64,000 nt of DNA from Tagaea sp. (GTDB lineage Bacteria > Pseudomonadota > Alphaproteobacteria > CACIAM-22H2). The position numbers were made by a program, and so were the translations under genes. Position 1 is the first letter of the stretch. The number at the start of each line of letters is the position of its first letter. The stretch lies in assembly GCA_965279525.1 (NCBI GenBank), contig CBDIIB010000005.1:832001-896000 (forward strand). Direction: 5' to 3'. This document shows, one piece after another, positions 404-36,327 of the stretch. The notes under the pieces are model-generated. The model was not told the origin of the DNA and searched no databases. It saw only the letters and a program-made list of their open reading frames with translations.

Positions 404-1117
404 CTAGATTAGCTCCATTACAGTATGCTTCATCGACGGATCCGTTGAAATTCGCCAGCGGCGCCTGAGGTTTGCGCGCAGGAACTCGACATTGTTTGCA
501 CGCCCGTCCACGATCAGCAAACATCCGGGATTGAGCGATGTTTCGTACAGCAATATGTCCGCCGCAATTATGCTGCGATTGGCGCCATCTTCCGTCGGAA
601 ATTTAAGGCCGTGAAATTCACCTTCGACCGTTTTGGGGTCCGGCCCATCCAGATAGATCAGGTCGGGGACAATGTTCGGAAGACGCTCGAACAGCGACAC
701 GATCTGACCACCGAGAAAGTGCAGTTGCGCGCGCGAGAACCTCAAGTCGGCATATTTCTCGAGGTTGCTGCCGATTTTCGAACGCGTGTTCTCAATCCAG
801 TGCTCGCTGGTGTCGATCGAGTGAATGCGTCCGGAGCCGTTGCGCGCGATCGCATCTGCCATAATGACCGTCGAGAACCCGCAGCCGAACTCAAGGACCG
901 TGAGAGGGCGGCGCTTCCTGATCGCCCGGTGAAGGAAGGCGAGATCCCAGATATCGGCCCTGATCTCGCTGCCGTCGCGTGAGACCAGCAACTTATGAAG
1001 ATCGTTCTCGGAAAAATACGCCTCTGCATTCCGTACCCGCCTCGAGCGGAACTTCGACAGGACCGCCCGGCGGGGTGTACGAACAAGAGTCCGAATTTTA
1101 CGGATTAGGGTTCTCAT
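404..1117 (-). CDS. Class I SAM-dependent methyltransferase (Methyltransf_24-like)
   Basis: VLEFGCGFST motif I, IHSIDTS, DLIYLDGP, LIVDGR. Confidence 0.75.
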   Translation of the reverse strand: MRTLIRKIRTLVRTPRRAVLSKFRSRRVRNAEAYFSENDLHKLLVSRDGSEIRADIWDLAFLHRAIRKRRPLTVLEFGCGFSTVIMADAIARNGSGRIHSIDTSEHWIENTRSKIGSNLEKYADLRFSRAQLHFLGGQIVSLFERLPNIVPDLIYLDGPDPKTVEGEFHGLKFPTEDGANRSIIAADILLYETSLNPGCLLIVDGRANNVEFLRANLRRRWRISTDPSMKHTVMELI

Positions 1118-1235
1118 TTTCTTCTCGCGACGTTTTATGCGTGCAATGGGGCGGCAGCTGGCTGCCCCGCGGGGAACGAATATCTCTCAACGCATTCCGG
1201 TCGATGTCCGTCGAGATAGCGTCTGGCTCAACACG

Positions 1236-2159
1236 TCACGCCATCTGGAGGCGCAGTAGCTTGCGAGAGATCCGGCGCGCGTGTGACAGCATGCGCTTCA
1301 CGGGCGGGAGCTGATCGGGAAGATTCTTAAAGACGAAACCAGCATCTACAAAATGGTAGCGCGCGATATAGCGCTCGCCGGAAGCGATTTTCCCACCACC
1401 GTGGATGCCGGCCGTGTCGAAAATGACGACCGTTCCAGGCCCGCCCGCCACGACATACTCGTACGACTTTTCCGGGTTCCGCTCTAGGCCCTGCAGCAGC
1501 TGGAACGTTTCATGAGCCTGCGGATCTGCAATCAGGTCCGGATTTTCCTCGATGGTCTTGAGAAGGTCGCCCAGATGGTTCTCCTCGACCATCTTCGTAC
1601 CGGGCTTGTACATCTTTGGCAATGCCGCACGCGCTAGGAGATGCGTGCGCGGGACGTAGCGAAACGCGCCGTTCTCGCGGCTGCCCGCGTTCAGGTACAC
1701 GTAGACCTTCATGCACAAATTACCCTGAAACACGTCGAAGTGCAGCTTGAAGAGCTCATCGGCACTTGGCGCCTTGGAATAGTTGTAGATGAAGCTCGAC
1801 ATGCCCCACCCTCGTCCAAGGTAGCCGTCGGCGGTTTCCCGCACGACCGGCAGGGATTTGATCCGCTCGACACTCGGTACGCGATCCCAGCCGGCATTGC
1901 GGGTCAACCTAACCGGAATGAGATTGAGCAGAAACGAACCGTCGGCGCCGGGATCTTCGTGCCGTCGTACGAACGGCGGCATATCGGCCAGCAGGCTGCG
2001 CCCTTCGGCCGCAATCGCCTCGATCTCGCCGCTGGGCAGGAACTCCGGCAGGACGCAGATGCCTTCGCGACGGACGGCTTCCAGCACCTTGCCTGCATCG
2101 AATGCCGTGCTTTTGTTCATCTCGGAATCCGCCTTATATCGATCTGGTGCGTGCGACAT
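1236..2159 (-). CDS. PhyH-family Fe(II)/2-oxoglutarate dioxygenase
   Basis: EGICVLPEFL N-terminus, LHFD (HxD), YVYLN...ENGAFRYVPRTH, GTVVIFDTAGIHGG (distal His); alternative start at 2120. Confidence 0.75.
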   Translation of the reverse strand: MSHAPDRYKADSEMNKSTAFDAGKVLEAVRREGICVLPEFLPSGEIEAIAAEGRSLLADMPPFVRRHEDPGADGSFLLNLIPVRLTRNAGWDRVPSVERIKSLPVVRETADGYLGRGWGMSSFIYNYSKAPSADELFKLHFDVFQGNLCMKVYVYLNAGSRENGAFRYVPRTHLLARAALPKMYKPGTKMVEENHLGDLLKTIEENPDLIADPQAHETFQLLQGLERNPEKSYEYVVAGGPGTVVIFDTAGIHGGGKIASGERYIARYHFVDAGFVFKNLPDQLPPVKRMLSHARRISRKLLRLQMA

Positions 2160-2185
2160 GCTCCCGGCGAACCGCCTGCGCTGGC

Positions 2186-2980
2186 TTAGAGGGAATCATG
2201 GGCAGGCGGCATGCCGGCCGTCTTTTGCGCAACGACGTGATGCGCTGTCTGCTTGCCACCACGGGAATTGACGAACTCGCGCGCGCTGGAGAAGCAAATC
2301 GTGAAGCCGGCTGCTTCAAGGCTCGATCGCATAGATTTTCCGGAGACGCGCATCGTCGCGAGATCGTCGCTTTCCGGGAAGTAGCTGTGGGTAAAGGCAA
2401 GTCGCCCGCCCGGCCGCATCACGCGCGCAATCCCGCGAAAGCAGCCGTCCAGGTCCTTGGCATAGGTCAGCGTGTTGGAGGACAGAACCGAATCGAAGTT
2501 GTTCTCGCCAAAAGTCATCGCCTCCATGTTCATGATCTCGATCTTCGGATTCGTCGAGTAGAGATCGATGGCGGATATGTTGCGCCATGCAAATCCGTAC
2601 AGCCAGCAAAGATAGAGTTCCTGGACAGTCCGCGGTCCGATGACCAGCAGCTTCTCGGAGGCAAGATCGCGCAAAGGAAGAACGAGCGCAGGTAGCAAAT
2701 TCTCTGCAGCGCGCCCTGTCGTAATCATTCGCGAGAGCGTTTGGCTAAGATTGTAGTCGTGCCACTGGACATAGTAGTCATCTGCCGGTGCGCCAGCCGA
2801 TGATGATTGACGCTTCGCCAGTTCCCGCAGCCGCCCGAAGTCGACAATCTGCATCAGTGTCGCCACCGGCTCAAACAGACGCGGATGCCGCAGCAGGCTG
2901 CGCAGTGGCATCATCGGTGCACGCGCCGGTTCGGGCGCGAATAGTGCCTTTCGCAGGAATGCAATCGTGTCCTTAAGCAT
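2186..2980 (-). CDS. Class I SAM-dependent methyltransferase (type 11-like)
   Basis: LLVIGPR, AIDL, NMEAMTFGENNFDSV, IARVMRPGGRL; start set at the ATG of MLKDTIA. Confidence 0.7.
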   Translation of the reverse strand: MLKDTIAFLRKALFAPEPARAPMMPLRSLLRHPRLFEPVATLMQIVDFGRLRELAKRQSSSAGAPADDYYVQWHDYNLSQTLSRMITTGRAAENLLPALVLPLRDLASEKLLVIGPRTVQELYLCWLYGFAWRNISAIDLYSTNPKIEIMNMEAMTFGENNFDSVLSSNTLTYAKDLDGCFRGIARVMRPGGRLAFTHSYFPESDDLATMRVSGKSMRSSLEAAGFTICFSSAREFVNSRGGKQTAHHVVAQKTAGMPPAHDSL

Positions 2981-3123
2981 CGATCTACCTATCTTCAGGC
3001 CATGGTTGTTTCGGGCCGAACGCCGTCGAGCACTGCCGTCAATTCCGATCAAGGGAGCGGCGGCAGCAATATGCGATACGCCCCGATACTGGACCCACGA
3101 GATTCATCATCGGCAATGCGGTG

Positions 3124-4269
3124 TTACTCGTAAGCTAGGCGCTTGTTCAGTTCGAGCGGCACTTGCGCCAAGACTTCTGCGATCTTCTGGCCGGCACGGC
3201 CGTTGCCGTAAATATGCGCCGTGCGATAGGGGCCGTGTGCCAGTTGACGGCGGATCGCCGCCGAGATCGCACCGCTTGCCGGCGGTACGTCGATGACATT
3301 GGCCCCGCGCTCGCGGCCTTCCTGGCGCGTCCCGATGTTCACAACTGGCACGCCGAGAAACTCCGCCTCTCGCAATCCGCTTGACGAATTCCCTACAAGA
3401 CAGCGGGTGCGCCGGAGCAGTCGAGCATAGCTTTCAATCTGGAGGCTTGAGTAGAACCAGACGGACATATCGGCACGCTCGGCGACATCGTCGAGCGCGC
3501 GGCGCACGCCATCGCCACCGGCATCCATATTGGGACGGATCCAGATGGCCGGTAGCCCGATCGTGGCAAGGGCATCCGCCGTCTCGCGGATTTGGGTCCG
3601 GGCATCTGCATACTCCGTGACAACGGGATGCTGCGAGACGACGATGAAGTCACGATCGAGGTCCGGCAACGGCCGACCATCGCTAACGCCGAGTTCCGGC
3701 ACAGACGCGTAGTCGAGATCGGCGATAATGTCGAGACTGGGCGTCCCGACAACGAAGATGCGTTCGTCCGCCTCCCCCATCCGGCGCAGAATGTCGGCCG
3801 CGCCGGGCGTCGCCGGAAAATGCACGTGCGCGAGCTTCGTAATCGCGTGCCGTAGACGCTCATCGATCGAGCCCGATACTTCACCGCCTTCGAGATGGGC
3901 GATCGGGACGTTCATGCAGGTTGCCGCAAACGCCAGCGAGAGCGCCTCGTAGCGGTCGGCGATGATCAGGGCCACGTCGGCCCGCAGATATCCAAGCGCC
4001 TGCCCGAACGTGCGGGTTGCAGCAGCGGCAGAAGCCGTCATGCTTGCAAGTGTTTCCCCGCCGTCGACGAGAAAATCGATCTCGGCGGCGATGCGGAACC
4101 CGTCGGCTTCGATCGCGGGGCGGAAATCCCCGAAGCGGCTCTGCAGGATGCCGCCCCCGACGACGAGCGCCAACTCGAGGTCGGACCGCGCCTCGATCGC
4201 CCGCATGGTCGACTTCATTTTCGCGTAGTTGCCGCGCGTCGTCAGCGCGATCGCAACTCGGCGGGTCAT
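3124..4269 (-). CDS. neuC: UDP/GDP-N-acetylglucosamine 2-epimerase, hydrolysing (NeuC/LegG family)
   Basis: TTRGNY, ADRYEAL, HLEGGEVSGSIDERLRHAITKLAHVHF, GNSSSGLREA, NIGTRQEGRE, IYGNG. Confidence 0.93.
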   Translation of the reverse strand: MTRRVAIALTTRGNYAKMKSTMRAIEARSDLELALVVGGGILQSRFGDFRPAIEADGFRIAAEIDFLVDGGETLASMTASAAAATRTFGQALGYLRADVALIIADRYEALSLAFAATCMNVPIAHLEGGEVSGSIDERLRHAITKLAHVHFPATPGAADILRRMGEADERIFVVGTPSLDIIADLDYASVPELGVSDGRPLPDLDRDFIVVSQHPVVTEYADARTQIRETADALATIGLPAIWIRPNMDAGGDGVRRALDDVAERADMSVWFYSSLQIESYARLLRRTRCLVGNSSSGLREAEFLGVPVVNIGTRQEGRERGANVIDVPPASGAISAAIRRQLAHGPYRTAHIYGNGRAGQKIAEVLAQVPLELNKRLAYE

Positions 4270-4302
4270 CGTCCGGTCCAGTGCCCGCAATTCGCCAAGC
4301 CG

Positions 4303-5469
4303 CTAGCGGACCGCCGCATTGCTGTCCCACTTGATCTTCGGCATGAAGCTTTCCGCATCGACATGGCTGCAATTGGCGCGCACGGTCGCCAGCATTTCGT
4401 CGAGCGTGGCATCGGTCAGCAGATACGGCTTCAAGCCCAGATCGAGCAGGGCCGTGTGCTTGGCGTTGTAGTAGTGCTCTTCGAGTTCGACGCGCGGGTT
4501 GGCGACGGTCTCGACCGCGACGGCAAGCCCCGCGCGCTTACCCGCCGCGACCACCTTGTCGGCGATCTGGCGGACCGAGAACTGCTCTGTGAACTGGTTG
4601 AAAACGCGAAACTCGGCAGGTGCCGCCGGGTTGTCGACCGACAGCGCGACGCACGCGATCGTATCGCGGATGTTGAGGAATCCGCGCGTCTGGCCGCCCC
4701 GCCCGTAGACGGTCAGCGGCTTGCCGACGGCGGCCTGCACGAGGAAGCGGTTGAGGACGGTCCCGAACACGCTGTCGTAGTGGAACGAGGTGCGCAGCTC
4801 CGGATCGAGGCGCGTATGATCGGTGTCAGTGCCGTAGACGACGCCCTGGTTGAGATCGGTCGCACGCATCTTCCATACCCGGCAGGCGAATTCGATGTTC
4901 GCGGAATCGTGGACCTTAGACAGGTGATAGAAGCTGCCCGGCTTCTTGGGGTAGAGCACGCGGTCCTGGCGGCCGTTGTGGGTCAGTTCGAGCCAGCCTT
5001 CCTCGATGTCGATGTTCGGCGTGCCGTATTCCCCCATGGTGCCGAGCTTGACGAGATGCGCGTTCGGCGCGAATCGCTTCATCGCGAACAGCACGTTGAG
5101 CGTGCCGACGATGTTGTTGACCTGGCTGTAGACAGCCGTCGAACGCGACTGCATCGAATAGGGTGCCGATGGCTGTTCGCCGTAGTGAACGATCGCGTCG
5201 GGGCGATAGGTCTCGATCAAGCCGTAGACGAAGCGCGGCTGCGCAAGGTCGCCGACCTCCATCTTGACGGCGCGCCCCGACACCTCCTGCCAGCGGCGCA
5301 CCCGCCGATGCAGCGTCGGCACCGGCAGCAGCGGCTCGACGCCTTCTTCCATCTCCCATTGGCGCTTGGCGAAGTTGTCGACGACGACCACCTCGTCGCC
5401 ACGCGCGGAAAAGTGCATCGCTGTCGGCCAACCGAGATAGCCGTCGCCGCCGAGAATCATAACCTTCAT
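4303..5469 (-). CDS. sqdB: UDP-sulfoquinovose synthase (SqdB/SQD1/Agl3 family)
   Basis: ILGGDGYLGWPTAMHFS, HYGEQPSAPYSM, HLVKLGTMGEYGTPNIDIEEG, PGSFYHLSKVHDS, TDLNQGVVYG, FRVFNQFTEQFSV, NPRVELEEHYYN. Confidence 0.92.
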   Translation of the reverse strand: MKVMILGGDGYLGWPTAMHFSARGDEVVVVDNFAKRQWEMEEGVEPLLPVPTLHRRVRRWQEVSGRAVKMEVGDLAQPRFVYGLIETYRPDAIVHYGEQPSAPYSMQSRSTAVYSQVNNIVGTLNVLFAMKRFAPNAHLVKLGTMGEYGTPNIDIEEGWLELTHNGRQDRVLYPKKPGSFYHLSKVHDSANIEFACRVWKMRATDLNQGVVYGTDTDHTRLDPELRTSFHYDSVFGTVLNRFLVQAAVGKPLTVYGRGGQTRGFLNIRDTIACVALSVDNPAAPAEFRVFNQFTEQFSVRQIADKVVAAGKRAGLAVAVETVANPRVELEEHYYNAKHTALLDLGLKPYLLTDATLDEMLATVRANCSHVDAESFMPKIKWDSNAAVR

Positions 5470-5574
5470 AGGAGTCTCCGGATCGAGTTGCAGAAGATCA
5501 GCCTGCGGCTTCTCTGCGAAGTTACTGGGTTTTTTGGGGGTGCGCGCAAGGCAGACCGGCGCGCGACGGGTCGT

Positions 5575-7797
5575 TCAGTTCTGCAGCCCCGACAGTTGGT
5601 AGCGTAGCGCGCCCGTGTCGGGAGCGATGCTGGATGCGTCAACGACTCCGTGGCGCATGAGCTTCTTGGTATGGACTTTCGACAGGATACGCCCGATACC
5701 CACGGGCGTTCGGCCGTAGATCGCAAGGAAGCGCGCGATCACATCACGCTGCGCTTCGTCCAGCACAAACCGGATCTGGCGCGGATCAGAAAAGCGGTAC
5801 GATTCGATGGGCCGGGGGTTGGCGTCGGCATAGAACGCGGCCAGATCGAAGCGGAATTCGGCAGCGATCTCGGTGTCGGATCCGTCGAACAGGTTGGTCA
5901 TTCGTAGCTCGTGATAGCGCACGGCATCCGCAACGAACTCGCGCACCGCTTCCCCATCCCTTCCCTCGGCAGCAAGAACCTTAAGCACACTTGCAGCCGC
6001 AAGCGTCGCTAGATCGGGAGCGAATTCGGTGATTGCGCGCGTCTTGTGGACGAACAGCAGATTGTTCCCCAGCTCTCCGTCGATGAACCTCTGCACTACG
6101 CCCGGCTCCTGGACAAATTCCTCGAGCGTTGTCTTTTCCTGCCAAAGCTCGGTTGCCGTCGCTTCGGCGAAACGGTCGAAAAGCGCCTGCAGTCCCGGTG
6201 GCGCCGGCGTTTCCAGCAGGGCTTCGATCCATTTCCAGCGCGAGATGCCGAGTACGCCCAGCAACTTCAGAATCGTCGAGAAGACGCTATCGTTGTAAAA
6301 GATCGTTACCATGAGATGCATCTTGCGGCAGGCGATGTAGTCGTCGAACGACAGCGTGCTGTGCGCGACGCATACTTCCTCGATCTCCGCTGCAACGATC
6401 GGTTCACCGCACAGCTCGAAGTGGCCGTAGCAGCGCGGCAGCACGCGGTAACGCGTGTCCATGCGATACTTGTCCTTGGTCGCGCGCGTCGCTAGGTCCG
6501 TGCCCGGCAGCAGCATGAGCTGGAACAAGTAGATGTTCGTGAATCCCGCCTCGAGCACGGTCCGCACGGTCTTGAAGTGTTTCTCGCGCGAGTCGCCGGG
6601 CAGGGCCAGAATAATCTCGGAATAGGAGTTCGCGCCGACCTCGCTGGCCGACAAGGCGAGATCCATCAGCCCGTCGGCAGAAATGTTCGACCTCTTGATA
6701 TTTTCGAGAACCTCGGGATCGAGGCTCTGGACGGAGCCGGACAGGCGCAGCGCGCCGTCGATGAGGCGGCTTGCCTCCAGCACTCGCTCCTTCTGATTCT
6801 TGCCCGTCGCAACATTGATGTATTCGGGCCAACCATACTCCGTACGCGCGTCTTTCAATGAACGGCAGACGTCGAGATCCTCGCGGTACATGCCGAAGTT
6901 CGAGTCCGCGATGAAAAGGTCATTGCGGCCGCCTTTGCTGCGGGCCGCCTTCATGTGCCGGCCGATATACGCGATCTCTGCCGCAGCTTTGGCGCCGGCG
7001 CCCCGATTGACCTTGTTGTAGTATCGTTCGCCTTCCACGCAGAACGTGCAGGAGAACGGGCAACCTCGATTTGTCTGGATGATCGGCATCAACGCGCCGT
7101 CGAAAAACTCGTCGAGACGGCCGCTGAGATAGGGCGAGGGAATGTCAGAGAGATTTGTGATGCGGGCCACCGGCGGCCTGAGATGGGCCGTGCCGCCGCG
7201 CGTCATCGCGTGGACCGATCCCAGGTCCTTTCTTTTCACGCTTTCGACATCTCCTTGCGAATCGAGCAGCGCCTCGAGGAGGCGCGCAAAGGCGATCTCG
7301 CCTTCCTTCTCGACGTAGAAATCGAGGGCCGGACGCGACTGCAGGAATTGCGTCTGCTCCTCGGCGGTGATCGGATAGTTCGGCCCACCCATCACGGTCA
7401 CTGTTGAAGGCCAGTTTTTCTTGATCGACTCGCAGAAGCGATACGACAGATTGTGGTTCCACACGTAGTTCGAAAATCCGATCAATGTCGGAGCACCGAA
7501 ACGCTCGAGAAATTCGATCAGTTTCTCGGGGTACTTGATGATCCGGATGGGTTCCTTCAGCGCAAAGTACGCTTCGGCATATGCCGCGATGCCCCCGACC
7601 GCCTGCGGCATGACGTCGGCTGCGATCGTCTGCTGCGTGTAGGTCAAATCGACCAGCCACACGGTGACGTCCCTGGCGTCGCGCCGCAGCGTCTCATGCG
7701 TCCTAGTTTCTGGCGTTTGCGTCGTCACCGCATTTCCCGTCTTAAAGGCGTTGCGTCCGAAAATCGCCGATAACTCCGGCGCTGCATAGCACGTCAC
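5575..7797 (-). CDS. Cobalamin-binding domain radical SAM protein
   Basis: N-terminal B12-binding-like region (IGFSNYVWN, VMGGPNY, EGEIAF), then QTNRGCPFSCTFC (CxxxCxxC), FIADSNFG, SVQSLDPEVLENIKR, ILALPGDS; start uncertain. Confidence 0.88.
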   Translation of the reverse strand: MTCYAAPELSAIFGRNAFKTGNAVTTQTPETRTHETLRRDARDVTVWLVDLTYTQQTIAADVMPQAVGGIAAYAEAYFALKEPIRIIKYPEKLIEFLERFGAPTLIGFSNYVWNHNLSYRFCESIKKNWPSTVTVMGGPNYPITAEEQTQFLQSRPALDFYVEKEGEIAFARLLEALLDSQGDVESVKRKDLGSVHAMTRGGTAHLRPPVARITNLSDIPSPYLSGRLDEFFDGALMPIIQTNRGCPFSCTFCVEGERYYNKVNRGAGAKAAAEIAYIGRHMKAARSKGGRNDLFIADSNFGMYREDLDVCRSLKDARTEYGWPEYINVATGKNQKERVLEASRLIDGALRLSGSVQSLDPEVLENIKRSNISADGLMDLALSASEVGANSYSEIILALPGDSREKHFKTVRTVLEAGFTNIYLFQLMLLPGTDLATRATKDKYRMDTRYRVLPRCYGHFELCGEPIVAAEIEEVCVAHSTLSFDDYIACRKMHLMVTIFYNDSVFSTILKLLGVLGISRWKWIEALLETPAPPGLQALFDRFAEATATELWQEKTTLEEFVQEPGVVQRFIDGELGNNLLFVHKTRAITEFAPDLATLAAASVLKVLAAEGRDGEAVREFVADAVRYHELRMTNLFDGSDTEIAAEFRFDLAAFYADANPRPIESYRFSDPRQIRFVLDEAQRDVIARFLAIYGRTPVGIGRILSKVHTKKLMRHGVVDASSIAPDTGALRYQLSGLQN

Positions 7798-7837
7798 CTG
7801 TGCCCCAACAATGGGGCCGGATGGCCTGCCTTCGTGG

Positions 7838-8566: not shown

Positions 8567-8567
8567 C

Positions 8568-9989: not shown

Positions 9990-9997
9990 TTCCGGAC

Positions 9998-29427: not shown

Positions 29428-29434
29428 CTTCTCT

Positions 29435-30718: not shown

Positions 30719-30737
30719 GTGGATATCCCTTCGGCGT

Positions 30738-31562
30738 TCAGAGGTTGACGGTGCGGACCTGGCCGGCATCGTCGATGAACGACAGATGCCCGGCCTTCTT
30801 TGCGGTGCGCGACCAGTATTCCGCTTCAACGTGCAGATTGTGCCCGACAAGGTCGGGATTGGCATTCAGATACGCGACGACTTCGGCGTGGGATGCCGGG
30901 CGGCCGGGCTTTTCGAGCGCTTCGAAAATTTTCGCGAAGACCTCGAAGTCAGCCGGGTAGTCGAGCGTGAGTCGGGCCGTGTTCTGGATGTGCTGGGGGC
31001 CAAGCGGACCGATCGTGACGTGGTTGCAAAGGCCCGACTTCGTGAAGAAATAGATGAAGCCCGTGTCGTTCTGCTCGGTGCGGTACTGTGCAAAGACCTT
31101 GTCCATCGCGCGCCGCGTGAAGCTCTTGACGGCAGTTCCGAGCGGCAGGCCATCGCACGTCACGATGTCGATCGCAGGATCCGACAGCAGGCGATCCATG
31201 CTGGCGTCCATATATTCGGTCGCACTTAGCGGATCGTCGCCGTCAACCTGGACGACCGCTTCGAAACCGTGCGCCACCATCGCGTCGCGAAAGCGGCGGA
31301 TAATGTCGTCACGCGAGCCGCGGAAGACGCGCGCGCCATACGCCTCCACGGCCGTCGCAAGGCCGTCGTCGCCAGGATCTTCCGTCGTGCAAACGACCGT
31401 GCGCTCCGGCGCCAGATAGCGGCACGCGAAGACGCGGTCGAGAAGATAGTGGACGATCGGCTTCCCCCTGACCTGCATCAGCGCCTTGCCGGGAAGACGC
31501 TCGGAAGACATGCGGATCGGAATGAGTGCCCCCAGACGGGGCGCGTTCGCGGTTCCGGTCAT
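30738..31562 (-). CDS. SpsF-type cytidylyltransferase
   Basis: IPIRMSSERLPGKAL, FRGSRDDIIRRF, VDGDDPL, LPLG, RLTLDYPAD. Confidence 0.85.
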   Translation of the reverse strand: MTGTANAPRLGALIPIRMSSERLPGKALMQVRGKPIVHYLLDRVFACRYLAPERTVVCTTEDPGDDGLATAVEAYGARVFRGSRDDIIRRFRDAMVAHGFEAVVQVDGDDPLSATEYMDASMDRLLSDPAIDIVTCDGLPLGTAVKSFTRRAMDKVFAQYRTEQNDTGFIYFFTKSGLCNHVTIGPLGPQHIQNTARLTLDYPADFEVFAKIFEALEKPGRPASHAEVVAYLNANPDLVGHNLHVEAEYWSRTAKKAGHLSFIDDAGQVRTVNL

Positions 31563-32758
31563 GCGAAATACGCGATCGCTTTGCGCAGTGCTTCGACCTG
31601 CACCGAGGCCTCCTCTTTGCTGCCATAGTTGTTCACGAACTGCATGATCTTGGGCTGAATCGCCTCGGCATTCGGGCAAAGACCTTTCGCCGGGTACTCG
31701 ATCGGCCCGTAGAGCGGCGGACAGCGCCGCTTCCACTCGCCGGAAGCGAACAACGTCTCGTGATACAGCAGCGACCACGCCGCGTAGATGCCGTCGCCGC
31801 CGAAGTCGATATGCTTGAAACGGAAGTCCTGCCACGACACGTCGGTGCGCTCGTAGCGCATGGCAACCGTCCAAAACGAGCTGCCGTAGCCGTCGGGGAC
31901 TTTCTGAGGCACGAGATAGTCGCAGTCGCGCACCGCGTCGAGATACATCTGCGAGATGCTGTTGCGCAAGGCGATGAAGTGCTCCAGGCGCTCGGTCTGG
32001 GCAAGGCCGACCGCTGCCGCGACCTCGGGCATGCGGTAGTTGTATCCGAACGCATCGTGTCGCCGGTAATTCGGGTTCTGGAAAATATCCTTGTTCGACC
32101 GGATGCGCCCGTCCGTGGCCTTGAGGGCCGCATAGCCGAGGCTGCCGAACTTGCGCATGCGCGCCGCATAGTCAGCGTTGTTGGTGACGATGATGCCGCC
32201 GTCGCCGGTGGTGATGTGCTTGGAGTTCTCGAGCGAATAGCTCGTGATGTCGGCCAGGGCCGCGATCGGCTGCCCCTTGTAGGTCGTGCCGAAGGCTTGA
32301 GCCGCGTCGTTGATTACTGCCAGATTGTGCTTGGCAGCAAGCGCGTTGATCGCGTCGAGATCGCAGCTCAGCCCGTAAAGCGAAATCGGCATGATCGCCT
32401 TGGTGCGCGGCGTGATGCGGCGCGCGATGTCTGCCGGATCGATGTTGAAAGTGCCCGGATCGACGTCGGCAAACACCGGGATCGCGTTCTGCGCCAGAAT
32501 GACGTCGAGATTCGAGATCACGGTCAACGGCGAGGTAATGACTTCGTCACCGTAGCCAACGCCGACCGCGTCGAGCCCGGCATGCAGCGTCGAGGTGCCG
32601 GAATTGAACGTGATCGCGTACTTGGAGCCGACCGCACGCGCGAAAGCCTCCTCGAACCTGTTATTCATGGATCCGGACGTGCCCGAGCCGAGGCCCGAAT
32701 CAAGCACTTCGCGGACATACTGCAGCTCTTGGCTGCCAAATCGCCAGGTGTTCTTCAC
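31559..32758 (-). CDS. DegT/DnrJ/EryC1/StrS aminotransferase
   Basis: NSGTSTLHAGL, GDEVI, INDAAQA, SLENSKHITTGDGG, GYNYRMPEVAAA. Confidence 0.9.
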   Translation of the reverse strand: MKNTWRFGSQELQYVREVLDSGLGSGTSGSMNNRFEEAFARAVGSKYAITFNSGTSTLHAGLDAVGVGYGDEVITSPLTVISNLDVILAQNAIPVFADVDPGTFNIDPADIARRITPRTKAIMPISLYGLSCDLDAINALAAKHNLAVINDAAQAFGTTYKGQPIAALADITSYSLENSKHITTGDGGIIVTNNADYAARMRKFGSLGYAALKATDGRIRSNKDIFQNPNYRRHDAFGYNYRMPEVAAAVGLAQTERLEHFIALRNSISQMYLDAVRDCDYLVPQKVPDGYGSSFWTVAMRYERTDVSWQDFRFKHIDFGGDGIYAAWSLLYHETLFASGEWKRRCPPLYGPIEYPAKGLCPNAEAIQPKIMQFVNNYGSKEEASVQVEALRKAIAYFA

Positions 32759-33366
32759 GTTTGCCCTCGAACATTGCGGTGGAGCGATCGAAATTCGTCG
32801 CGAAATACGCCGAACAGCAGATGGTCGCAATAGCCGTCGTCGACGGCATCTTGGCGGCGCAGCACCGCCTCGCGGCGGAAACCCAGATTCTCGAACAGCC
32901 GGACGACCGCCGGGTTAATCGCCATGGCGCCGGCCGTGAGTTTGCGCAGGCCGACCCGTTCGAACAGGTGCTCGCACAGCGTCGAGACGGCATCGCCGCC
33001 GAGCCCGCGGCCCCAGCGGTCGCGGCGCCCGATCATGATCCCGATATCCGCAGTTCCTGCGTGCCAGGAAACGTGGCCAGCCTTGGCCGTGCCGACGAAC
33101 GCGCCGTCCGCCAGATCGTGGATCGCGAGATAAAGGTCGTTCGGAGACGCCATGAGTCCTTCGCAGTAGACGCGGAGCGTTTCGAACGCGACGCCCCCGC
33201 GATACGCGGGAAGATTGAGCGTTCGCACGACAGCCGGATCGTTGAGCCAGGACGCGTAGTCGGGCGCTTCGAGATGGCGGCGGGTAAAGCGCACGCAGCG
33301 CACGCGGCTGCCTGCGAGTTCAAGACCATCGTCGCCGAGCCGCAACGCGGTCAAATCGCCGTCCAC
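32755..33366 (-). CDS. GNAT (RimJ-like) N-acetyltransferase
   Basis: YASWLNDP, ADIGIMIGRRDRWGRGLG, LRKLTAGAMAIN, FENLGF; start is GTG 33366 or TTG 33354. Confidence 0.82.
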   Translation of the reverse strand: MDGDLTALRLGDDGLELAGSRVRCVRFTRRHLEAPDYASWLNDPAVVRTLNLPAYRGGVAFETLRVYCEGLMASPNDLYLAIHDLADGAFVGTAKAGHVSWHAGTADIGIMIGRRDRWGRGLGGDAVSTLCEHLFERVGLRKLTAGAMAINPAVVRLFENLGFRREAVLRRQDAVDDGYCDHLLFGVFRDEFRSLHRNVRGQT

Positions 33367-34112
33367 CCGCCGTCGATCGGCAGCAGCGCCCCGGTCACAT
33401 AGGACGCGGCGGCACTGCATAGAAAAGCCACGGGTGGCCCGATTTCCTCGGCCCGAGCCATGCGTCCGAGCGCGGTGCGGCGCGAGTAGGCGGCGACGAA
33501 ACGTTCATCTTGGCCCGCCGCCACGCCGCCCGGTGCCACGACATTGACCCGGACATTGTCGCGGCCGTAGTGCGCCGCAAGATAGCGCGTATGTGCGATC
33601 AGCCCACCCTTGATCGCGGCGTAGGCCGCCGGGGTCGTCATCGTGGTTCCTTCGTAGATCGCGAAATCCGGCGCCACCATGCCGTAGATCGAAGCGACGT
33701 TGACGATCGCCCCGCCGCCGCGTCGCGCGAGGACCCCTGCGGCTCGCTCGGATGCGCGGCAGACAGCCGTCAACTGCATTTCGAGATTGCGTCGCCAGCT
33801 TTCGGTGCTGTCGCCGACTCCGTGCCGACCCCAATCCGCCGTGCGCGGGTAGGCCGCATTGACCCAAGCGGCAAAGCCGTGCGCCGCGTCGATGCGGTCG
33901 ACGAGTTCGGCCACATTGTCCGGATCGGAGACGTCGGCTGCGACCGGCGTCACGTGTTCGCGCGATACGACAGGCAGCTGCCTGTCGACTGAGACGACAC
34001 GCGCCCCGCAGGCGACCAAAGCCGCAACCGCAGCCGCGCCGATGCGGCCGTCTCCGCCCGTGACGACGACGGTCGAACCGTCGAGCCGAAAGGGATGGGA
34101 CGCGTATGTCAT
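33351..34112 (-). CDS. SDR oxidoreductase, PtmA-like
   Basis: VTGGDGRIG, WVNAAYPRTADWG, NVASIYG, YAAIKGG, RVNVVAPGG, IDGGW. Confidence 0.85.
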   Translation of the reverse strand: MTYASHPFRLDGSTVVVTGGDGRIGAAAVAALVACGARVVSVDRQLPVVSREHVTPVAADVSDPDNVAELVDRIDAAHGFAAWVNAAYPRTADWGRHGVGDSTESWRRNLEMQLTAVCRASERAAGVLARRGGGAIVNVASIYGMVAPDFAIYEGTTMTTPAAYAAIKGGLIAHTRYLAAHYGRDNVRVNVVAPGGVAAGQDERFVAAYSRRTALGRMARAEEIGPPVAFLCSAAASYVTGALLPIDGGWTAI

Positions 34113-34130
34113 GCAGAGGGCCGCCCTGCC

Positions 34131-34159
34131 TTGCAATCGCACTGCATCGCGTGTACACG
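34131..34159 (+). promoter_or_regulatory. Candidate sigma70 promoter of legB
   Basis: TTGCAA-N17-TACACG, followed by a purine-rich SD (GGAAGGA) before ATG 34190. Confidence 0.4.
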
Positions 34160-34189
34160 GCTGCTCGATAGGCCCGGAAGGAAGGAACG

Positions 34190-35215
34190 ATGGACACCCC
34201 CCATAAGCGAATCGACTATCGCCAAATGGCTGCACTGGTGACCGGTGCCGACGGCTTCATCGGCTCGCATCTCGTCGAAGCGCTGGTGCGCGAGGGCGCG
34301 CGCGTGACGGCCGTGGCACAGTACAATTCGTTCGGCACCAACGGCTGGCTCGACTCGCTGGCTGCCGACGTTCTCGCGAACGTCGAGATCCATCGCGCCG
34401 ACATACGCGACCGAACCCACATGGTCGAACTCAGCCGCGGCAAACAAGTCATTTTCCACCTGGCTGCGCTGATTAGCGTACCCTACTCGTTCCATTCCGC
34501 GCAGAGTTTCGTCGAGACGAACGTACTCGGCACGCTTAACATGCTCGAAGCGGCGCGCGCCAACGGCGTTGCGCGCATCGTCTGTACGTCCACGTCCGAA
34601 GTCTACGGCACGGCCCAGACCGTGCCGATTGGCGAAACCCATCGACTTCACGCGCAGTCGCCCTACGCCGCCAGCAAGATCGGTGCCGACATGCTGGCGC
34701 AATCCTTCGCGCTCACACATGGCCTGCAGGTCGTTCTGCTGCGGCCCTTCAACACGTTCGGTCCGCGCCAGAGCGAACGCGCGGTCATCGCCAGCGTCAT
34801 TCGCCAGGCGATCGATCCCAATTGCAGCGAAATTCGCGTCGGCAGCCTCGTGCCGCGCCGCGACTTCAACTATGTCGGCGACATTGCCGACGCGTTCCTG
34901 GCGGCGGGCAAGGCCGACATCGCAACGGGCGATGCCTACAATGTAGGAACGGGCGATGCGATCAGCATCGGTGAGCTTTGCACGCGCGTGCTGTCCTTCA
35001 CTGGTACCAACAAAAGCGTCGTGCAGGAAGACACGCGCCTTCGCCCCGACACGGCCGAGGTGTTCGAATTGGTCGCCGACGCCGCGCGTTTTCGCAATGC
35101 GAGCGGTTGGGCGCCGAAAACGGATTTCGATCAGGGACTGCAAAACACCATTGCCTGGTGGCGGGAACGGTTGACGGCGGGCGGCTTTCGCCGCTCGCGC
35201 GACTATGTCGTCTGA
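34190..35215 (+). CDS. legB: NAD-dependent 4,6-dehydratase, LegB family
   Basis: LVTGADGFIGSHLVE, QYNSFGTNGWLDSL, HLAALISVPYS, TSTSEVYGTAQTVPI, SPYAASKIGAD, RPFNTFGPRQSERAVI. Confidence 0.9.
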   Translation: MDTPHKRIDYRQMAALVTGADGFIGSHLVEALVREGARVTAVAQYNSFGTNGWLDSLAADVLANVEIHRADIRDRTHMVELSRGKQVIFHLAALISVPYSFHSAQSFVETNVLGTLNMLEAARANGVARIVCTSTSEVYGTAQTVPIGETHRLHAQSPYAASKIGADMLAQSFALTHGLQVVLLRPFNTFGPRQSERAVIASVIRQAIDPNCSEIRVGSLVPRRDFNYVGDIADAFLAAGKADIATGDAYNVGTGDAISIGELCTRVLSFTGTNKSVVQEDTRLRPDTAEVFELVADAARFRNASGWAPKTDFDQGLQNTIAWWRERLTAGGFRRSRDYVV

Positions 35216-36327
35216 AGTGCTGCCGTCAGGGCTGCGACGACACGATCTTGGTCGGCCTGCGACAGATAGGGGTGCATCGGCAGGCTCAGCACTTCGCCCG
35301 CCAGCGCGTCGCTGACCGGCAGGCCGTTGTTGGCCACGGGGAAACGCGCATAGGCGGTCTGCCGATGCATGGGCTTCGCGTAGTAGATGGCGGTCGGGAT
35401 GCCTGCCTTCTTGAGCTTGGCGGCGACCGCGTTGCGCCGGCCGCCACCGATGCGGATCGTGTACTGCGCCCAAACGCTCGTGAGTCCCTGGGGCACGCGC
35501 GGCACGATGCAGTGTTCTTCGAGCGCGTCGGAATAGCGCTGGGCGATTCGGTTTCGTGCTTCGATCTCGCCCGGAAACAGCTTCAACTTCTCGATCAGCA
35601 CGGCCGCTTGAATCGTGTCCATGCGCCCGTTCATGCCGATCCGCACATTGTCGTACTTGTCCACACCCTGCCCGTGCACGCGTAGCGATACGAGCGTCTC
35701 GCGAAGAGCATCGTCGTCGAAGAAAATCGCCCCGCCGTCGCCGTAGCAGCCGAGCGGCTTGGCCGGAAAGAACGAAGTTGCCGCAATGCGGCCGATCGAA
35801 CCGGTCTTGCGGCCCTTGTAGCTTCCACCGTAGCCCTGTGCCGTATCGGCCAGTATCCACAGATTGTGGGCGGCACAGATTGGCTCGATCGAATCGTAGT
35901 CGGCCGGCAGGCCGAACAGATCGACCGGGATCACGCCGACCGGCTCGAGCCCTAGCCGCTTGGCCGTGGTAATGCCGGCTTCGAGGCTCCTCGGGTCCAT
36001 GTTGAAAGTGTCGGGCAGGCAGTCGACGAAAATCGGCGTCGCGCCTAACCACACCACCACCTCGCCGGTCGCGGCGAAGGTGAACGAGGGCACAAGTACC
36101 GCGTGGCGCGGTTTCACGTCGAAGGCCATAAGCGCCAAGGCGAGCGCATCCGTGCCGTTGGCAACCGTGAGTGCGTGCTTGGCGCCGCAGTAGGCCGCAA
36201 GCTGCGACTCCAGCGTGGCGATCTCGGGACCCATAATGTACTGGCCGCTGCGCACGACCTTGAGAACGGCCTCTTCCAGTTCAGCGCCGAGATGCGCGCG
36301 CTGGGCCTGCAGGTCGATAAATTGCAT
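35203..36327 (-). CDS. DegT-family aminotransferase, WbpE-like
   Basis: MQFIDLQAQ, GQYIMGPEI, ANGTDALALAL, PVDLFGLPAD, TSFFPAKPLGCYGDGG, NGRMDTIQAAVL, LSLPMHPYL. Confidence 0.88.
   Translation of the reverse strand: MQFIDLQAQRAHLGAELEEAVLKVVRSGQYIMGPEIATLESQLAAYCGAKHALTVANGTDALALALMAFDVKPRHAVLVPSFTFAATGEVVVWLGATPIFVDCLPDTFNMDPRSLEAGITTAKRLGLEPVGVIPVDLFGLPADYDSIEPICAAHNLWILADTAQGYGGSYKGRKTGSIGRIAATSFFPAKPLGCYGDGGAIFFDDDALRETLVSLRVHGQGVDKYDNVRIGMNGRMDTIQAAVLIEKLKLFPGEIEARNRIAQRYSDALEEHCIVPRVPQGLTSVWAQYTIRIGGGRRNAVAAKLKKAGIPTAIYYAKPMHRQTAYARFPVANNGLPVSDALAGEVLSLPMHPYLSQADQDRVVAALTAALQTT

Follow-up and report, generated by a model that had tools for sequence, protein, structure and literature searches.

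Two nonulosonate cassettes probably make up the variable core of a surface-glycan locus in Tagaea sp.

Do the nonulosonate genes at positions 404–36327 of the analyzed window (the whole 64,000-nucleotide stretch of Tagaea sp. DNA) form one pathway, and how many sugars are made? The first-pass annotation had described a single ~36-kb pathway and, from its surplus of enzymes, at least two or three CMP-ulosonates, probably undescribed. All gene classes that it listed are present as intact ORFs strongly supported by Pfam/NCBIfam HMMs, and its counts hold as well: two NeuB synthases, three PF02348 cytidylyltransferases, four DegT aminotransferases, two GNATs, two PhyH dioxygenases, and three SAM methyltransferases. 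The span comprises ~35 intact genes, including, beyond the earlier list, a D-2-hydroxyacid dehydrogenase, a Gfo/Idh/MocA oxidoreductase, a fused ABC exporter, and four ORFs without an assigned family (g08, g13, g17, and g22). Instead of a single pathway, we see two cassettes, A and B, each conserved alone in other genomes, and consider it quite probable that the core is explained by two nonulosonate cassettes joined end to end.

These ~35 genes are the variable core of a ~58-kb surface-glycan locus bounded on one side by lptD, outside the window, and on the other by purH (49123, ~49.1 kb). The locus exceeds the span at both ends: leftward it reaches ~8.8 kb past the window edge, and rightward it runs to ~49 kb. 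The right part (37760–49035) contains genes for an AsnB-type amidotransferase, GT4, GDSL, Wzy_C, LPG_synthase_TM, SDR, and a fifth DegT (47560–49035); the PLP lysine column is kept in the latter and in all four DegT proteins within 404–36327. The locus is hypervariable: its position is common to same-genus genomes and its content is not. In G444, G443, and G430, LptD (61% identity) lies at one end and the wHTH/RfaH/DegT/AsnB/GT4 block (58–69% identity) at the other, and the interiors differ. Moreover, contig C1 of the same Tagaea genome has the same flanks around NeuB3, NeuC, CMP-transferase, a g08 paralog, and GT4, with SqdB and the NeuB2-type synthase absent from this C1 locus; it is a natural swap of locus content within one genome.

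Cassette B (404–16379) consists of the NeuB2, 2-hydroxyacid dehydrogenase, CMP-transferase, GT-B, B12 radical SAM, SqdB, and NeuC genes together with the ABC exporter and a KpsC/KpsS-like protein, the intergenic gaps from g13 to g08 being −4 to +8 bp; genes of both cassettes lie on the minus strand unless stated otherwise. The NeuB2 synthase of the SqdB-linked clade (g11, 11708–12748; PF03102, E 5.9e-65; TIGR03569, 301.6 bits, below the cut-off of 399.65) is accompanied by the D-2-hydroxyacid dehydrogenase (g10, 10729–11703; PF02826, E 6.9e-42), 71–73% identical to the copies in L032 and G432, and by a CMP-ulosonate synthetase-like cytidylyltransferase (g09, 9998–10732; PF02348, E 3.7e-19; PseF model TIGR03584, 94.6 bits, below the cut-off of 205.7). 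The UDP-sulfo-sugar synthase g05 (4303–5469), which is of the SQD1/SqdB type and falls in the nonulosonate-linked clade, scores 516 bits against Arabidopsis SQD1 (1qrr, residues 2–382) and 445 bits against the SqdB model NF041015 (below the cut-off of 575), and keeps the catalytic motifs GTMGEYG and YHLSK. The sole NeuC-type hydrolyzing NDP-HexNAc 2-epimerase of the window (g04, 3124–4290; TIGR03568, 345 bits against a cut-off of 235.9) is assigned to cassette B by synteny, since NeuC adjoins NeuB2/SqdB in 20 out of 28 loci and in L032–L034. A cobalamin-binding radical SAM protein (g06, 5575–7797; PF04055 and PF02310) with CPFSCTFC at residue 246 is a candidate C-methylase resembling TokK (154 bits) and CysS (114 bits), with homologs in L015, L018, L021, L022, L025, L032, G444, G430, and G432.

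Further genes encode SAM methyltransferases g01 (Methyltransf_24, 404–1117; PF13578, E 1.6e-9), g03 (2186–3052; PF08241, E 1.1e-9), whose homologs adjoin PhyH/ABC/NeuB2 in L008, L025, G444, and G430, and g07 (7838–8566; PF08241, E 3e-18), as well as PhyH-type dioxygenases g02 (Fe/2OG, 1236–2159; PF05721, E 8.7e-7) and g14 (16229–17197; PF05721, E 5.4e-7). The fused ABC exporter (g12, 12745–14577; PF00005) is MsbA/PglK/HepA-like, its best NCBIfam matches all being below cut-offs. Two proteins are candidate transferases. The GT-B protein g08 (8568–9989) matches the BFO_1060 glycosyltransferase family weakly (NF046086, E 2.6e-6, 26.8 bits, cut-off 200), has a generic GT-B fold in the structure model (pLDDT 86.4) and an invariant YRPHPW motif, and is co-conserved in seven out of 28 loci, as well as in L032 and C1. 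For the KpsC/KpsS-like (Capsule_synth) protein g13 (14574–16232, start taken as GTG at 16232), Pfam, NCBIfam, and PDB searches yielded no match; its top Atlas clusters (scores 0.97–0.98) carry PF05159 on 24–61% of members, and L006, L024, and L032 each have a homolog of it beside the ABC gene.

Cassette B recurs across several phyla. In 28 NeuB2 loci we counted CMP-transferase in 22, NeuC in 20, SqdB in 16, ABC in 13, 2-hydroxyacid dehydrogenase in ten, g08 in seven, and the B12 radical SAM gene in five; the full order g13–ABC–NeuB2–NeuC–2HADH–CMP-transferase–SqdB–rSAM–g08 is seen in L032. As these loci were found via NeuB2, their nonulosonate linkage is by design, and searches started from SqdB are unbiased in this respect. 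Such a search identified SqdB homologs in 32 out of 401 genomes of the class, this one included. Among 20 fetched loci, all three with SqdB identity of at least 71% adjoin NeuC, two of them also adjoining NeuB2 and CMP-transferase, and none of the 17 at 52% identity or less does so. In the order sample, all seven other SqdB matches are located 1.7–5.4 kb from a NeuB match, and in the tree 17 nonulosonate-linked SqdBs form one clade (SH-aLRT 90). SqdB is absent near some NeuB2-type synthases with flanks of at least 8 kb (L004, L009, L016/17, L019, and L021). Our literature search found no paper tying SqdB to nonulosonate pathways.

NeuB1 and NeuB2 are 34–35% identical, and each lies in its own cassette with its own PF02348 cytidylyltransferase. 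Residues Arg77, His107, and Lys245 are invariant in the NeuB2 clade (30 sequences), which also has a nine-residue deletion, whereas N. meningitidis NeuB has Ile82, Phe112, and Val249 at these positions. The comparison was grouped by identity; an earlier grouping by adjacency gave no column. As the three residues are situated near the sugar site and flank the equivalent of the conserved Asp247, we infer a remodeled, more basic sugar pocket in NeuB2.

Family membership suggests that cassette A (17206–36327) is legionaminic-acid-like, with most Leg-specific NCBIfam scores in the locus below the curated cut-offs. Most of its genes overlap by 4 bp. The presumed core includes a CBS-containing sugar-1-phosphate nucleotidyltransferase of PtmE-like architecture (g15, 17206–18249, start refined; PF00483, E 1.2e-28, and PF00571), the NeuB1 synthase (g18, 20732–21769; PF03102, E 2.8e-71; TIGR03569, 313.9 bits, cut-off 399.65), 58–67% identical to its copies in metagenome cassettes, a NeuD/LegH-like hexapeptide N-acetyltransferase (g19, 21759–22364; TIGR03570, 134.7 bits, cut-off 160.8), a LegC-like DegT aminotransferase retaining the PLP lysine (g20, 22361–23590; TIGR04181, 359.8 bits, cut-off 420), cytidylyltransferase 2 (g21, 23470–24162; PF02348, E 4.7e-20), and, on the plus strand, where it breaks the minus-strand run, a LegB-like NDP-HexNAc 4,6-dehydratase of the SDR family (g33, 34190–35215; TIGR04180, 379 bits, cut-off 475) with a readable RBS and ATG, convergent with g34.

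Other members are a PIG-L family de-N-acetylase (g15b, 18246–18935; PF02585, E 8.3e-20), overlaid by a longer spurious ORF, a formyltransferase (g16, 18932–19879; PF00551 and PF02911), DegT (g23, 25148–26479; PF01041, E 1.5e-87), Gfo/Idh/MocA oxidoreductase (g24, 26476–27477; PF01408, E 3.2e-7), GNAT N-acyltransferase (g25, 27474–28172; PF13302, E 8.9e-26), the WbuZ/HisH/WbuX acetamidino module (g26–g28, 28022–30865; TIGR03573, 304 bits, above 203; TIGR01855, 231 bits, above 105; TIGR03572, 283.6 bits, below 299.7), cytidylyltransferase 3 (g29, 30738–31874, the true start probably being near 31559; PF02348, E 2.5e-14, residues 116–253), a further DegT and GNAT pair (g30 and g31, 31559–33420; PF01041, E 1.9e-86; PF13302, E 4.7e-17), an SDR opening the long minus-strand run (g32, 33351–34112, start ATG at 34112; PF13561, E 3.5e-33), PtmA-like at the family level only (NF050062, 108 bits, cut-off 350), and DegT g34 of the conserved flank block (35203–36327; PF01041, E 1.7e-105), 62–64% identical in G444 and G443. 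The rare GT2-like protein g17 (19837–20718; PF13641 only, E 5e-4) has five homologs in a search of 5.8 billion proteins; in L066, L067, L071–73, and L075 it always comes after NeuB1.

The new GT-B family protein g22 (24159–25151) belongs to no sequence family and has 14 homologs. In the 11 metagenome loci with its relatives (the tables of L071–73 being identical), the order is GNAT–Gfo–DegT–g22–CMP-transferase–LegC–NeuD–NeuB1–g17–formyltransferase–PIG-L–CBS-nucleotidyltransferase; the Gfo/DegT/GNAT extras probably belong to the Leg-like pathway, since they co-travel with this cassette. None of the 11 loci contains a NeuC homolog, and the 19 best structural matches of the g22 model (pLDDT 93.5; search via VIA) are all NDP-sugar 2-epimerases (Z 19.5–21.1), so that we tentatively propose g22 for the LegG/NeuC step, release with 2-epimerization. 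Alternatively, g22 may be a glycosyltransferase: glycosyltransferases follow within about 1–2 Z of the epimerases, the protein carries an HP motif of a kind also seen in sialyltransferases, and profile comparison shows no relation to the NeuC family (probability 0.6%).

To the right of the core, also on the minus strand, a promoter-like TTGACG-18-TATAGT (37631–37660; 10 out of 12 consensus positions, a consensus match only) and a winged-helix regulator gene (36938–37621; PF13412, E 3.4e-7) precede an RfaH-like NusG paralog (36438–36941; PF02357, E 7.5e-21; TIGR01955, 126 bits, below 144.5). The ops-like element TGCGGTAGCATG in the g34 leader (36365–36376) is only suggestive of an ops site, because one-mismatch copies of the 8-mer are common across the window (90 matches observed, 61 expected).

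From the observed gene families, cassette structure, separate conservation, and locus position, we infer the substrates, products, and step order as follows. In cassette A, the CBS-nucleotidyltransferase would yield an NDP-HexNAc, subject to LegB-like 4,6-dehydration, LegC-like 4-amination, and NeuD-type N-acetylation; g22 may then release and 2-epimerize the sugar, NeuB1 would condense it with PEP, and CMP activation would follow, with tailoring by the acetamidino module, the PIG-L de-N-acetylase and formyltransferase, and two more oxidoreductase/aminotransferase/GNAT sets. In cassette B, the SQD1-type enzyme would add sulfonate at C6 of UDP-hexose or UDP-HexNAc, NeuC would release and epimerize the sulfonated sugar, NeuB2 with PEP would form a 9-deoxy-9-sulfo nonulosonate, and the PseF-like enzyme would activate it with CMP. 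Candidates for tailoring the product are the TokK-like B12 radical SAM enzyme, the SAM methyltransferases g01, g03, and g07, the PhyH dioxygenases g02 and g14, and the 2-hydroxyacid dehydrogenase; g08 and g13 could transfer it, and the ABC protein could export or flip it. Known SqdB enzymes use UDP-glucose, whereas a 2-acetamido sugar is required by the NeuC-type enzymes described so far, hence either g05 or g04 would need to differ from its characterized relatives.

At least two CMP-nonulosonates are likely made, given two divergent NeuBs in separately conserved cassettes with a cytidylyltransferase each; the enzyme surplus by itself sets no number, and some enzymes may serve other sugars, because at least seven glycosyltransferase-like genes belong to the ~58-kb heteropolysaccharide locus around the span. 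As to novelty, the earlier suggestion of undescribed sugars is partly preempted: N-formyl and free-amine Leg-type sugars in Ca. Kuenenia and "C10" ulosonic acids in M. gryphiswaldense have already been reported by mass spectrometry (2020 and 2026). A C-sulfonated and/or C-methylated nonulosonate is plausible, the sulfo decoration proposed earlier being backed by synteny and the remodeled NeuB2 pocket. Since cassette B includes an enzyme expected to add sulfonate and a candidate B12-dependent radical methylase, the cell surface probably carries chemically undescribed sugars.

Listing of ORFs, codon-position GC and Pfam and NCBIfam scans delimit about 35 intact genes within 404–36327, tightly packed and frequently overlapping by 4 bp, all of them on the minus strand except the gene for the LegB-like dehydratase g33 (34190–35215, plus strand). 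The first-pass annotation had interpreted this span as a single ~36-kb pathway for several decorated nonulosonic acids (NulOs). Every gene class that it named was found in 404–36327 by the Pfam and NCBIfam scans, including the PIG-L de-N-acetylase (18246–18935), and the PLP lysine is indeed kept, in the S-x-x-x-x-K column, in all four DegT aminotransferases of the span. The single pathway, however, resolves into two cassettes, the Leg-like cassette A (17206–36327) and cassette B (404–16379), each conserved separately, in the core of a larger locus. As most family models match under the NCBIfam cut-off, family names are to be read here as “-like”: only NeuC, WbuX, and HisH score above the cut-offs, whereas LegB, LegC, NeuD, both NeuBs, WbuZ, RfaH, and SqdB are best matches yet under them.

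The flanking genes identify the 36-kb span as the core of a ~58-kb surface-glycan locus, in which seven or more genes are glycosyltransferase-like. Between the span and purH (49.1 kb), on the right, lie genes for AsnB-type amidotransferase, GT4, GDSL, Wzy_C, LPG_synthase_TM, SDR, and DegT proteins, and to the left of the window, in the same genome, genes for two GT4 proteins, an SDR, a methyltransferase, and a GT2, followed by lptD. The GC content is 59–66% over 1–36 kb of the window and 64–70% further right. The fifth DegT, right of the span (47560–49035, plus strand), also has the lysine of the S-x-x-x-x-K column; it is LegC-like, 41% identical to g20 (LegC of cassette A), and carries an N-terminal extension of ~110 residues, which looks CBS-like in the alignment and is uncalled by Pfam. 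Beyond purH, the sole match of a 1293-residue ORF (51383–55264, minus strand) is an Hsp70/actin-like ATPase domain at residues 881–1102, its large N-terminal part being without a family. At the left edge, a ~940-bp gap with 60% GC (831462–832404 of contig C5, CBDIIB010000005.1, taking in the 1–404 side of the window) separates g01 from the next glycosyltransferase gene; it was found to contain no ORF assignable to a family or showing coding-type GC, and it could be a junction left from cassette exchange.

Upstream of the span genes and on the same strand are a winged-helix regulator, an RfaH-like NusG paralog (best hit TIGR01955, 126 bits, under the cut-off of 144.5) and, according to a consensus scan, a promoter-like site; in terminator and promoter scans of the window, sites were no more numerous than in shuffles. 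Since legB is convergent with the gene of the first DegT, g34, the long minus-strand run begins at the SDR gene g32 (ATG at 34112), in front of which there is a divergent gap of 77 bp. The ops element of RfaH systems is recognized as GGCGGTAGnnTG in the operon leader. The exact ops core GGCGGTAG was not found near the operon start, and the one-mismatch pattern was dropped as evidence, being too common in this GC-rich window. An ops-like TGCGGTAGCATG follows the regulator gene within the 110 bp that lead into g34, the first DegT gene; given that such a short pattern is common in the window, this element is suggestive only.

The locus is variable within the genus. NeuB genes occur in 19 out of 20 same-genus genomes of the order sample, with a top identity to the cassette A synthase NeuB1 of 44%, and in ten of the 20, two or three NeuBs lie within 41 kb on one contig. 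In the genomes G444, G443, and G430, LptD (61% identity) borders the locus on one side and the wHTH/RfaH/DegT/AsnB/GT4 block (58–69%) on the other, and the cassettes inside it differ; cassette B is present in G444, G430, and G432 at 46–73% identity. Thus, multi-synthase NulO loci are a trait of the genus, with the window representing one allele of a hypervariable site, and NulO cassettes are swapped at the site bounded by lptD and the rfaH block.

The cassette B synthase, NeuB2 (g11), was searched in one representative genome per species, yielding 28 loci (top identity 73%), mostly in uncultured Rhodospirillales-type MAGs and also in Sulfuritalea, Desulfovibrio-type, Syntrophaceae, Nitrospiraceae, SAR116, and archaeal genomes (one archaeon). 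These loci contain a PseF-like cytidylyltransferase (22 out of 28), NeuC (20), SqdB (16), ABC (13), D-2-hydroxyacid dehydrogenase (10), a GT4 family (8), the GT-B protein g08 (7), HisH (6), and the B12 radical SAM enzyme (5). The full order g13–ABC–NeuB2–NeuC–dehydrogenase–cytidylyltransferase–SqdB–radical SAM–g08 is seen in L032 from another alphaproteobacterium, where a sulfotransferase gene (L032:5182–6054) adjoins the g08 homolog. In L019, a single 569-residue ORF (L019:12199–13908) spans the dehydrogenase and cytidylyltransferase homologs; if this is a fusion, as it may be, the dehydrogenase would be linked to free or CMP-bound ulosonate. In L034 (9636–16159; genome G188), a flagellin gene is the immediate neighbor of an SqdB–NeuC pair that is accompanied by an RmlA-like nucleotidyltransferase and an SDR, and thus the sulfo-sugar route may serve flagellin in some lineages.

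Because the 28 loci had been selected via NeuB2, a reverse test was run from SqdB. Its homologs are encoded in 32 out of 401 genomes of the class, including the studied one, and 20 of the 31 foreign loci were fetched, the 11 omitted ones being all at most 44% identical. Among SqdBs with at least 71% identity, NeuC adjoins in three loci out of three, and NeuB2 and the cytidylyltransferase do so as well in two of them; at 52% identity or less, NeuC, NeuB2, or the cytidylyltransferase adjoin in none of 17 loci. In the order sample, the SqdB type is present in eight out of 50 genomes, and in all seven foreign ones it is located 1.7–5.4 kb from a NeuB match. On the tree, 17 NulO-linked SqdBs, including that of the window, form one clade (SH-aLRT 90), and the common alphaproteobacterial SqdBs a separate long branch; the linkage label requires three changes, two Desulfo-type linked genes being placed elsewhere. 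Among the papers searched, there was none linking SqdB to nonulosonate pathways and none in which “nonulosonic” and “sulfoquinovose” co-occur; papers with both “SqdB” and “NeuB” were irrelevant, and among the matches listed only a dehydratase review combined sulfoquinovose with Leg/Pse terms.

The SqdB of cassette B, g05, matches Arabidopsis SQD1 over residues 2–382 of 388 (516 bits) and keeps the motifs GTMGEYG and YHLSK, whose Thr, Tyr-His, and Lys we take to be the catalytic residues of SQD1; against the NF041015 equivalog it scores 445 bits, under the cut-off of 575. In the full-length match and the Thr/Tyr-His/Lys motifs it is thus similar to the SQD1/SqdB structures (PDB:1qrr, 1i24), but its clade resides inside NulO cassettes rather than in sulfolipid operons, its own neighbors being NulO genes, and it is just 38–44% identical to the common alphaproteobacterial SqdB type. 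Given the match and the retained motifs, sulfite-addition chemistry would be expected of g05.

The synthases themselves were examined by comparing residues of 30 NeuB2-type sequences with those of 13 other NeuBs from the same loci. In the alignment to N. meningitidis NeuB, E25, K53, Q55, K129, S132, S154, N184, Y186, H215, H236, and D247 line up as in the active site, where they are presumably the substrate contacts. The NeuB2 clade has a 9-residue deletion (positions 70–78 of the N. meningitidis protein) and invariant W74, R77, H107, T180, N240-A241-Q242, W244, K245, and W284; of these, R77, H107, and K245 align to I82, F112, and V249 of N. meningitidis NeuB, surrounding the equivalent of the conserved D247. 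This gives the clade three additional basic side chains close to the sugar site, which would fit an anionic substrate. An initial grouping of NeuBs by SqdB within 8 kb yielded no discriminating column; truncated contigs with NeuB2-type genes filled its “unlinked” group. The grouping by identity to NeuB2 was hence post hoc, which counts against a sulfonate on the nonulosonate. By NCBIfam and PDB bit scores, both synthases are about equally distant from all solved ones.

Whether cassette B makes a sulfonated nonulosonate is nearly an even question, tipped slightly toward the negative. In favor, SqdB is interleaved with NeuC, NeuB, and the cytidylyltransferase, in gene orders varying across phyla; no glycosyltransferase is recognizable in the five-gene cassettes L001–L003, and L034, with the order NTP-transferase–NeuC–SqdB, has no NeuB within 10 kb. 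On the other hand, the known SqdBs act on UDP-glucose and enzymes of the NeuC type depend on a 2-acetamido group, and NeuB2-type genes occur without SqdB in L004, L009, L016/17, L019, and L021, both of which count against a sulfonate on the nonulosonate. SqdB might then merely supply the donor UDP-sulfoquinovose, so that sulfoquinovose and a non-sulfonated NulO would be separate residues, with NeuB2, NeuC, and the cytidylyltransferase g09 making a Neu5Ac-like or other plain nonulosonate. This explanation agrees with the closeness of g05 to SQD1, a UDP-glucose enzyme, with the large number of glycosyltransferases in the locus, and with the GT4 family seen in eight out of 28 loci and, in the left flank, as C5:830211–831461, the cyanobacterial sulfolipid synthase SqdX being a GT4 too. 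Yet we consider it unlikely, as the interleaving and the composition of L001–L003 and L034 argue against it, and so does a second contig of the same genome, C1 (L052:1–17252). This contig, 17 kb long, repeats the left flank of the locus in diverged form (72–84% DNA identity); it may stem from a related strain as a second allele, represent a paralogous region, or be an unplaced fragment of a plasmid. The third NulO cassette, which it carries (ABC fragment–NeuB3–NeuC–cytidylyltransferase–pyruvyltransferase–g08 paralog–GT4, with PhyH and methyltransferases) has neither SqdB nor a NeuB2-type synthase, and thus the synthase type changes together with SqdB, while the synthase pocket gains basic residues; the conserved GT4, which on this explanation would be the sulfoquinovosyl transferase, is retained there beside the g08 paralog and hence follows g08, not SqdB.

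Cassette B also encodes a radical SAM enzyme, g06, which has the features of class B (cobalamin) enzymes, namely, a B12 domain (PF02310, 32.6 bits, cut-off 32.1), a radical SAM domain (PF04055, 38.8 bits, cut-off 29.5), and a CxxxCxxC motif (CPFSCTFC at residue 246). TokK and CysS, its nearest solved relatives (154 bits, PDB:7kdx, and 114 bits, PDB:9n1b, respectively), are cobalamin-dependent radical SAM enzymes of iterative sp3-carbon methylation; g06 shares both domains and the motif with them but belongs to a sugar pathway, not an antibiotic one, and it scores 152.7 bits against the KedN5 family of C-methyltransferases (NF033712), under the cut-off of 700. Homologs of g06 lie in the same cassette in L015, L018, L021, L022, L025, L032, G444, G430, and G432. 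Higher-carbon ulosonic acids have been reported for Magnetospirillum gryphiswaldense (Kleikamp 2020, PMC8157484), and the SugarBase preprint gives CMP-linked species of m/z 679.1983, 693.2139, and 707.2296, differing by CH2, with a C10 marker fragment (10.64898/2026.04.20.719630). According to the same sources, the CMP-NulOs of this alphaproteobacterium are diverse, acetamidino and methylated forms among them, and the backbone of the CH2-spaced series is extended; the C10 acids of the organism are known as chemistry alone, with masses lacking sulfur, and “radical,” “cobalamin,” and “B12” are absent from the preprint text. A TokK-like enzyme in NulO cassettes would be a natural candidate for the C10 series, whose CH2 spacing an iterative C-methylase in such a cassette would explain.

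The other cassette was traced through the GT-B protein g22, which has 14 relatives in a search of 5.8 billion proteins. A metagenome scan with its family yielded 11 loci (L071–L073 being identical in content) that, where long enough, share the order GNAT–Gfo–DegT–g22–cytidylyltransferase–LegC–NeuD–NeuB1–g17–formyltransferase–PIG-L–CBS-nucleotidyltransferase, with NeuB1 at 58–67% identity; WbuX/HisH/WbuZ stand in front of the cassette in L071–L073, and LegB follows it in L068 and L074. Cassette A is thus a unit of its own, to which the extra Gfo/DegT/GNAT set belongs. A NeuC homolog is present in none of the 11 loci, and the sole NeuC of the window (g04; TIGR03568, 345 bits, above 235.9) is a member of cassette B by synteny. 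With the usual LegG missing from cassette A, g22 is the best candidate for the LegG/NeuC step: in VIA-align comparisons of its confident model (pLDDT 93.5), the best 19 rows are all NDP-sugar 2-epimerases (Z 19.5–21.1), by a small margin, as GT1 and MurG-type transferases come next from Z 19.3 downward. There is room for a transferase role of g22 as well, given its HP motif, Atlas leads to polysialyltransferase and TagF-type families, and profile comparison showing no relation to the NeuC family (probability 0.6%); the comparison with g08 yielded no relation either (7.8%). No usable match to a solved structure came from sequence searches of g08, g13, g17, or g22.

Of the remaining members of cassette A, g33 has TIGR04180 as the best hit (379 bits, under the curated cut-off of 475) and g20, with the lysine column kept, TIGR04181 (359.8 bits, under 420). 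NeuB1 (g18) is above the Pfam cut-off with PF03102 (240 bits) and under that of the NeuB equivalog (313.9, cut-off 399.65), and the CMP-synthetase is above it with PF02348 (73 bits); the libraries searched hold no Leg-specific synthase or CMP-synthetase model. The WbuX/WbuY/WbuZ acetamidino module is represented by an N-acetyl sugar amidotransferase (TIGR03573, 304 bits, above 203) with HisH-like (TIGR01855, 231, above 105) and HisF-like (TIGR03572, 283.6, just under 299.7) partners, and hisH/hisF-like copies apart from it are found elsewhere on C5. A point of comparison is the CMP-legionaminic acid pathway of Campylobacter jejuni. Like this pathway, cassette A has LegB, LegC, and NeuD/LegH-type proteins as best hits, a NeuB, a cytidylyltransferase, a CBS-nucleotidyltransferase of PtmE architecture, and a WbuX-type amidotransferase. 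The differences are that the scores are under the NCBIfam cut-offs; NeuC/LegG is missing both in cassette A and in the 11 related loci, with g22 in place; Gfo/DegT/GNAT and SDR/DegT/GNAT sets and a second and third cytidylyltransferase are added; and the surrounding locus is of the polysaccharide rather than the flagellar kind. The C. jejuni enzymes named in the SugarBase preprint are LegB, LegC, LegH, LegG, LegI, LegF, PtmE, and the amidotransferase PtmG; the preprint also describes how, in the Leg-type cluster of Ca. Kuenenia stuttgartiensis, which makes free-amine and N-formyl Leg-type sugars, deacetylase and formyltransferase genes separate legB/legF/legC from neuB/legF/legG (10.64898/2026.04.20.719630). 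Compared by gene description, cassette A likewise has PIG-L and the formyltransferase directly beside NeuB1 and Leg-like genes, as well as two legF-like cytidylyltransferases, and differs in the added acetamidino module, g17, and g22 and in having no legG. By this analogy, CMP-sugars in free-amine and N-formyl form would be predicted for cassette A.

Transfer of the products may involve several proteins. The conserved GT-B family of g08 has an invariant YRPHPW motif and weakly matches the NCBIfam model BFO_1060 (26.8 bits, cut-off 200), which is named after Tannerella forsythia NulO-derivative transferases, those for Pse/Leg derivatives being Tanf_01245, TFUB4_00887, and BFO_1060 (PMC5420450). 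It shares with them this match, the HP motif, and the GT-B fold, its score being far under the cut-off; in profile comparison it is weakly related to a GT4 family (55%) and NeuC (11%), and as Foldseek gave generic GT-B matches only, naming a transferase family for g08 was abandoned. For g13, there is no Pfam match even at E 1 and no HMM match at all; it resembles the KpsC/KpsS Kdo transferases (PF05159, Capsule_synth) through its nearest Atlas (language-model) clusters, which bear this family on 24–61% of members, but not by the family HMM. Neither g08 nor g13 can be filed in the T. forsythia or KpsC/KpsS families. The third protein, g17, is GT2-like, rare, and associated with NeuB1. The fused ABC gene, Wzy_C, GT2 and GT4 genes, lptD, and the RfaH-like regulator make a surface polysaccharide (O-antigen or capsule-like) the likely destination.

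Two further explanations have to be weighed against these. The locus might make one NulO only, of the Leg type, with the second NeuB and the extra cytidylyltransferases redundant or serving 8-carbon (Kdo-like) or other sugars, and the surplus aminotransferases and acyltransferases building ordinary amino sugars of the repeat unit. Cytidylyltransferases g21 and g29 indeed match KdsB-type subfamily models best, Gfo, DegT, and acyltransferase sets of the WbpB/E/D kind are the usual makers of 3-amino sugars, and many residues are to be expected from seven or more glycosyltransferase-like genes. Nevertheless, this is improbable, as NeuB1 and NeuB2 are both intact (34–35% identity), each lies in its own cassette conserved separately elsewhere, and in metagenome contigs the Gfo/DegT/GNAT set is conserved alongside NeuB1/LegC/NeuD; these two cassettes bear out in part the initial interpretation of the enzyme surplus as a source of several ulosonates. 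An even slightly less probable option is a flagellin glycosylation island of the kind present in Campylobacter or Aeromonas. The genome has nine flagellin-family matches, the related SqdB–NeuC pair of L034 neighbors a flagellin gene, and PtmE/PtmA-like genes bear names from flagellin modification; but a family search found no Maf (PF01973) in this 97%-complete genome, the nearest flagellin match is ~44 kb left of the window start, and the lptD flank, Wzy_C, GT2/GT4, ABC exporter, KpsC/S-like gene, and RfaH-like regulator all indicate a polysaccharide locus.

A further-reaching proposal is that cassette B would make 9-deoxy-9-sulfo-Neu5Ac or its Kdn counterpart, the sulfonate being bound to carbon C9; in this genome the sugar would be further C-methylated by the TokK-like B12 radical SAM enzyme g06; the family of this enzyme would also stand behind the C10 acids, and g22 would replace LegG/NeuC in cassette A. 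As a whole, this proposal is tentative, with the balance of probability against it. If true, a sialic-acid-like sugar of this kind, sulfonated at C9, would be new to the literature; to our knowledge, known NulO chemistry comprises just N-/O-acyl, amidino, and methyl decoration. Here, a sulfite-adding enzyme and a radical C-methylase are found within a complete NulO pathway of a nearly closed genome. The 2026 SugarBase untargeted nucleotide-sugar workflow excluded compositions with both N and S (10.64898/2026.04.20.719630), and thus sulfonated amino-ulosonates could not be annotated and would be missed. C-sulfonated, chain-extended ulosonates are a possible new class of sugars. NulOs shape the recognition of bacteria by phages, predators, and immune systems, and the presence of two or more NeuBs within 41 kb in half of the same-genus genomes, none above 44% identity to NeuB1, points to strong diversifying selection on surface ulosonates.
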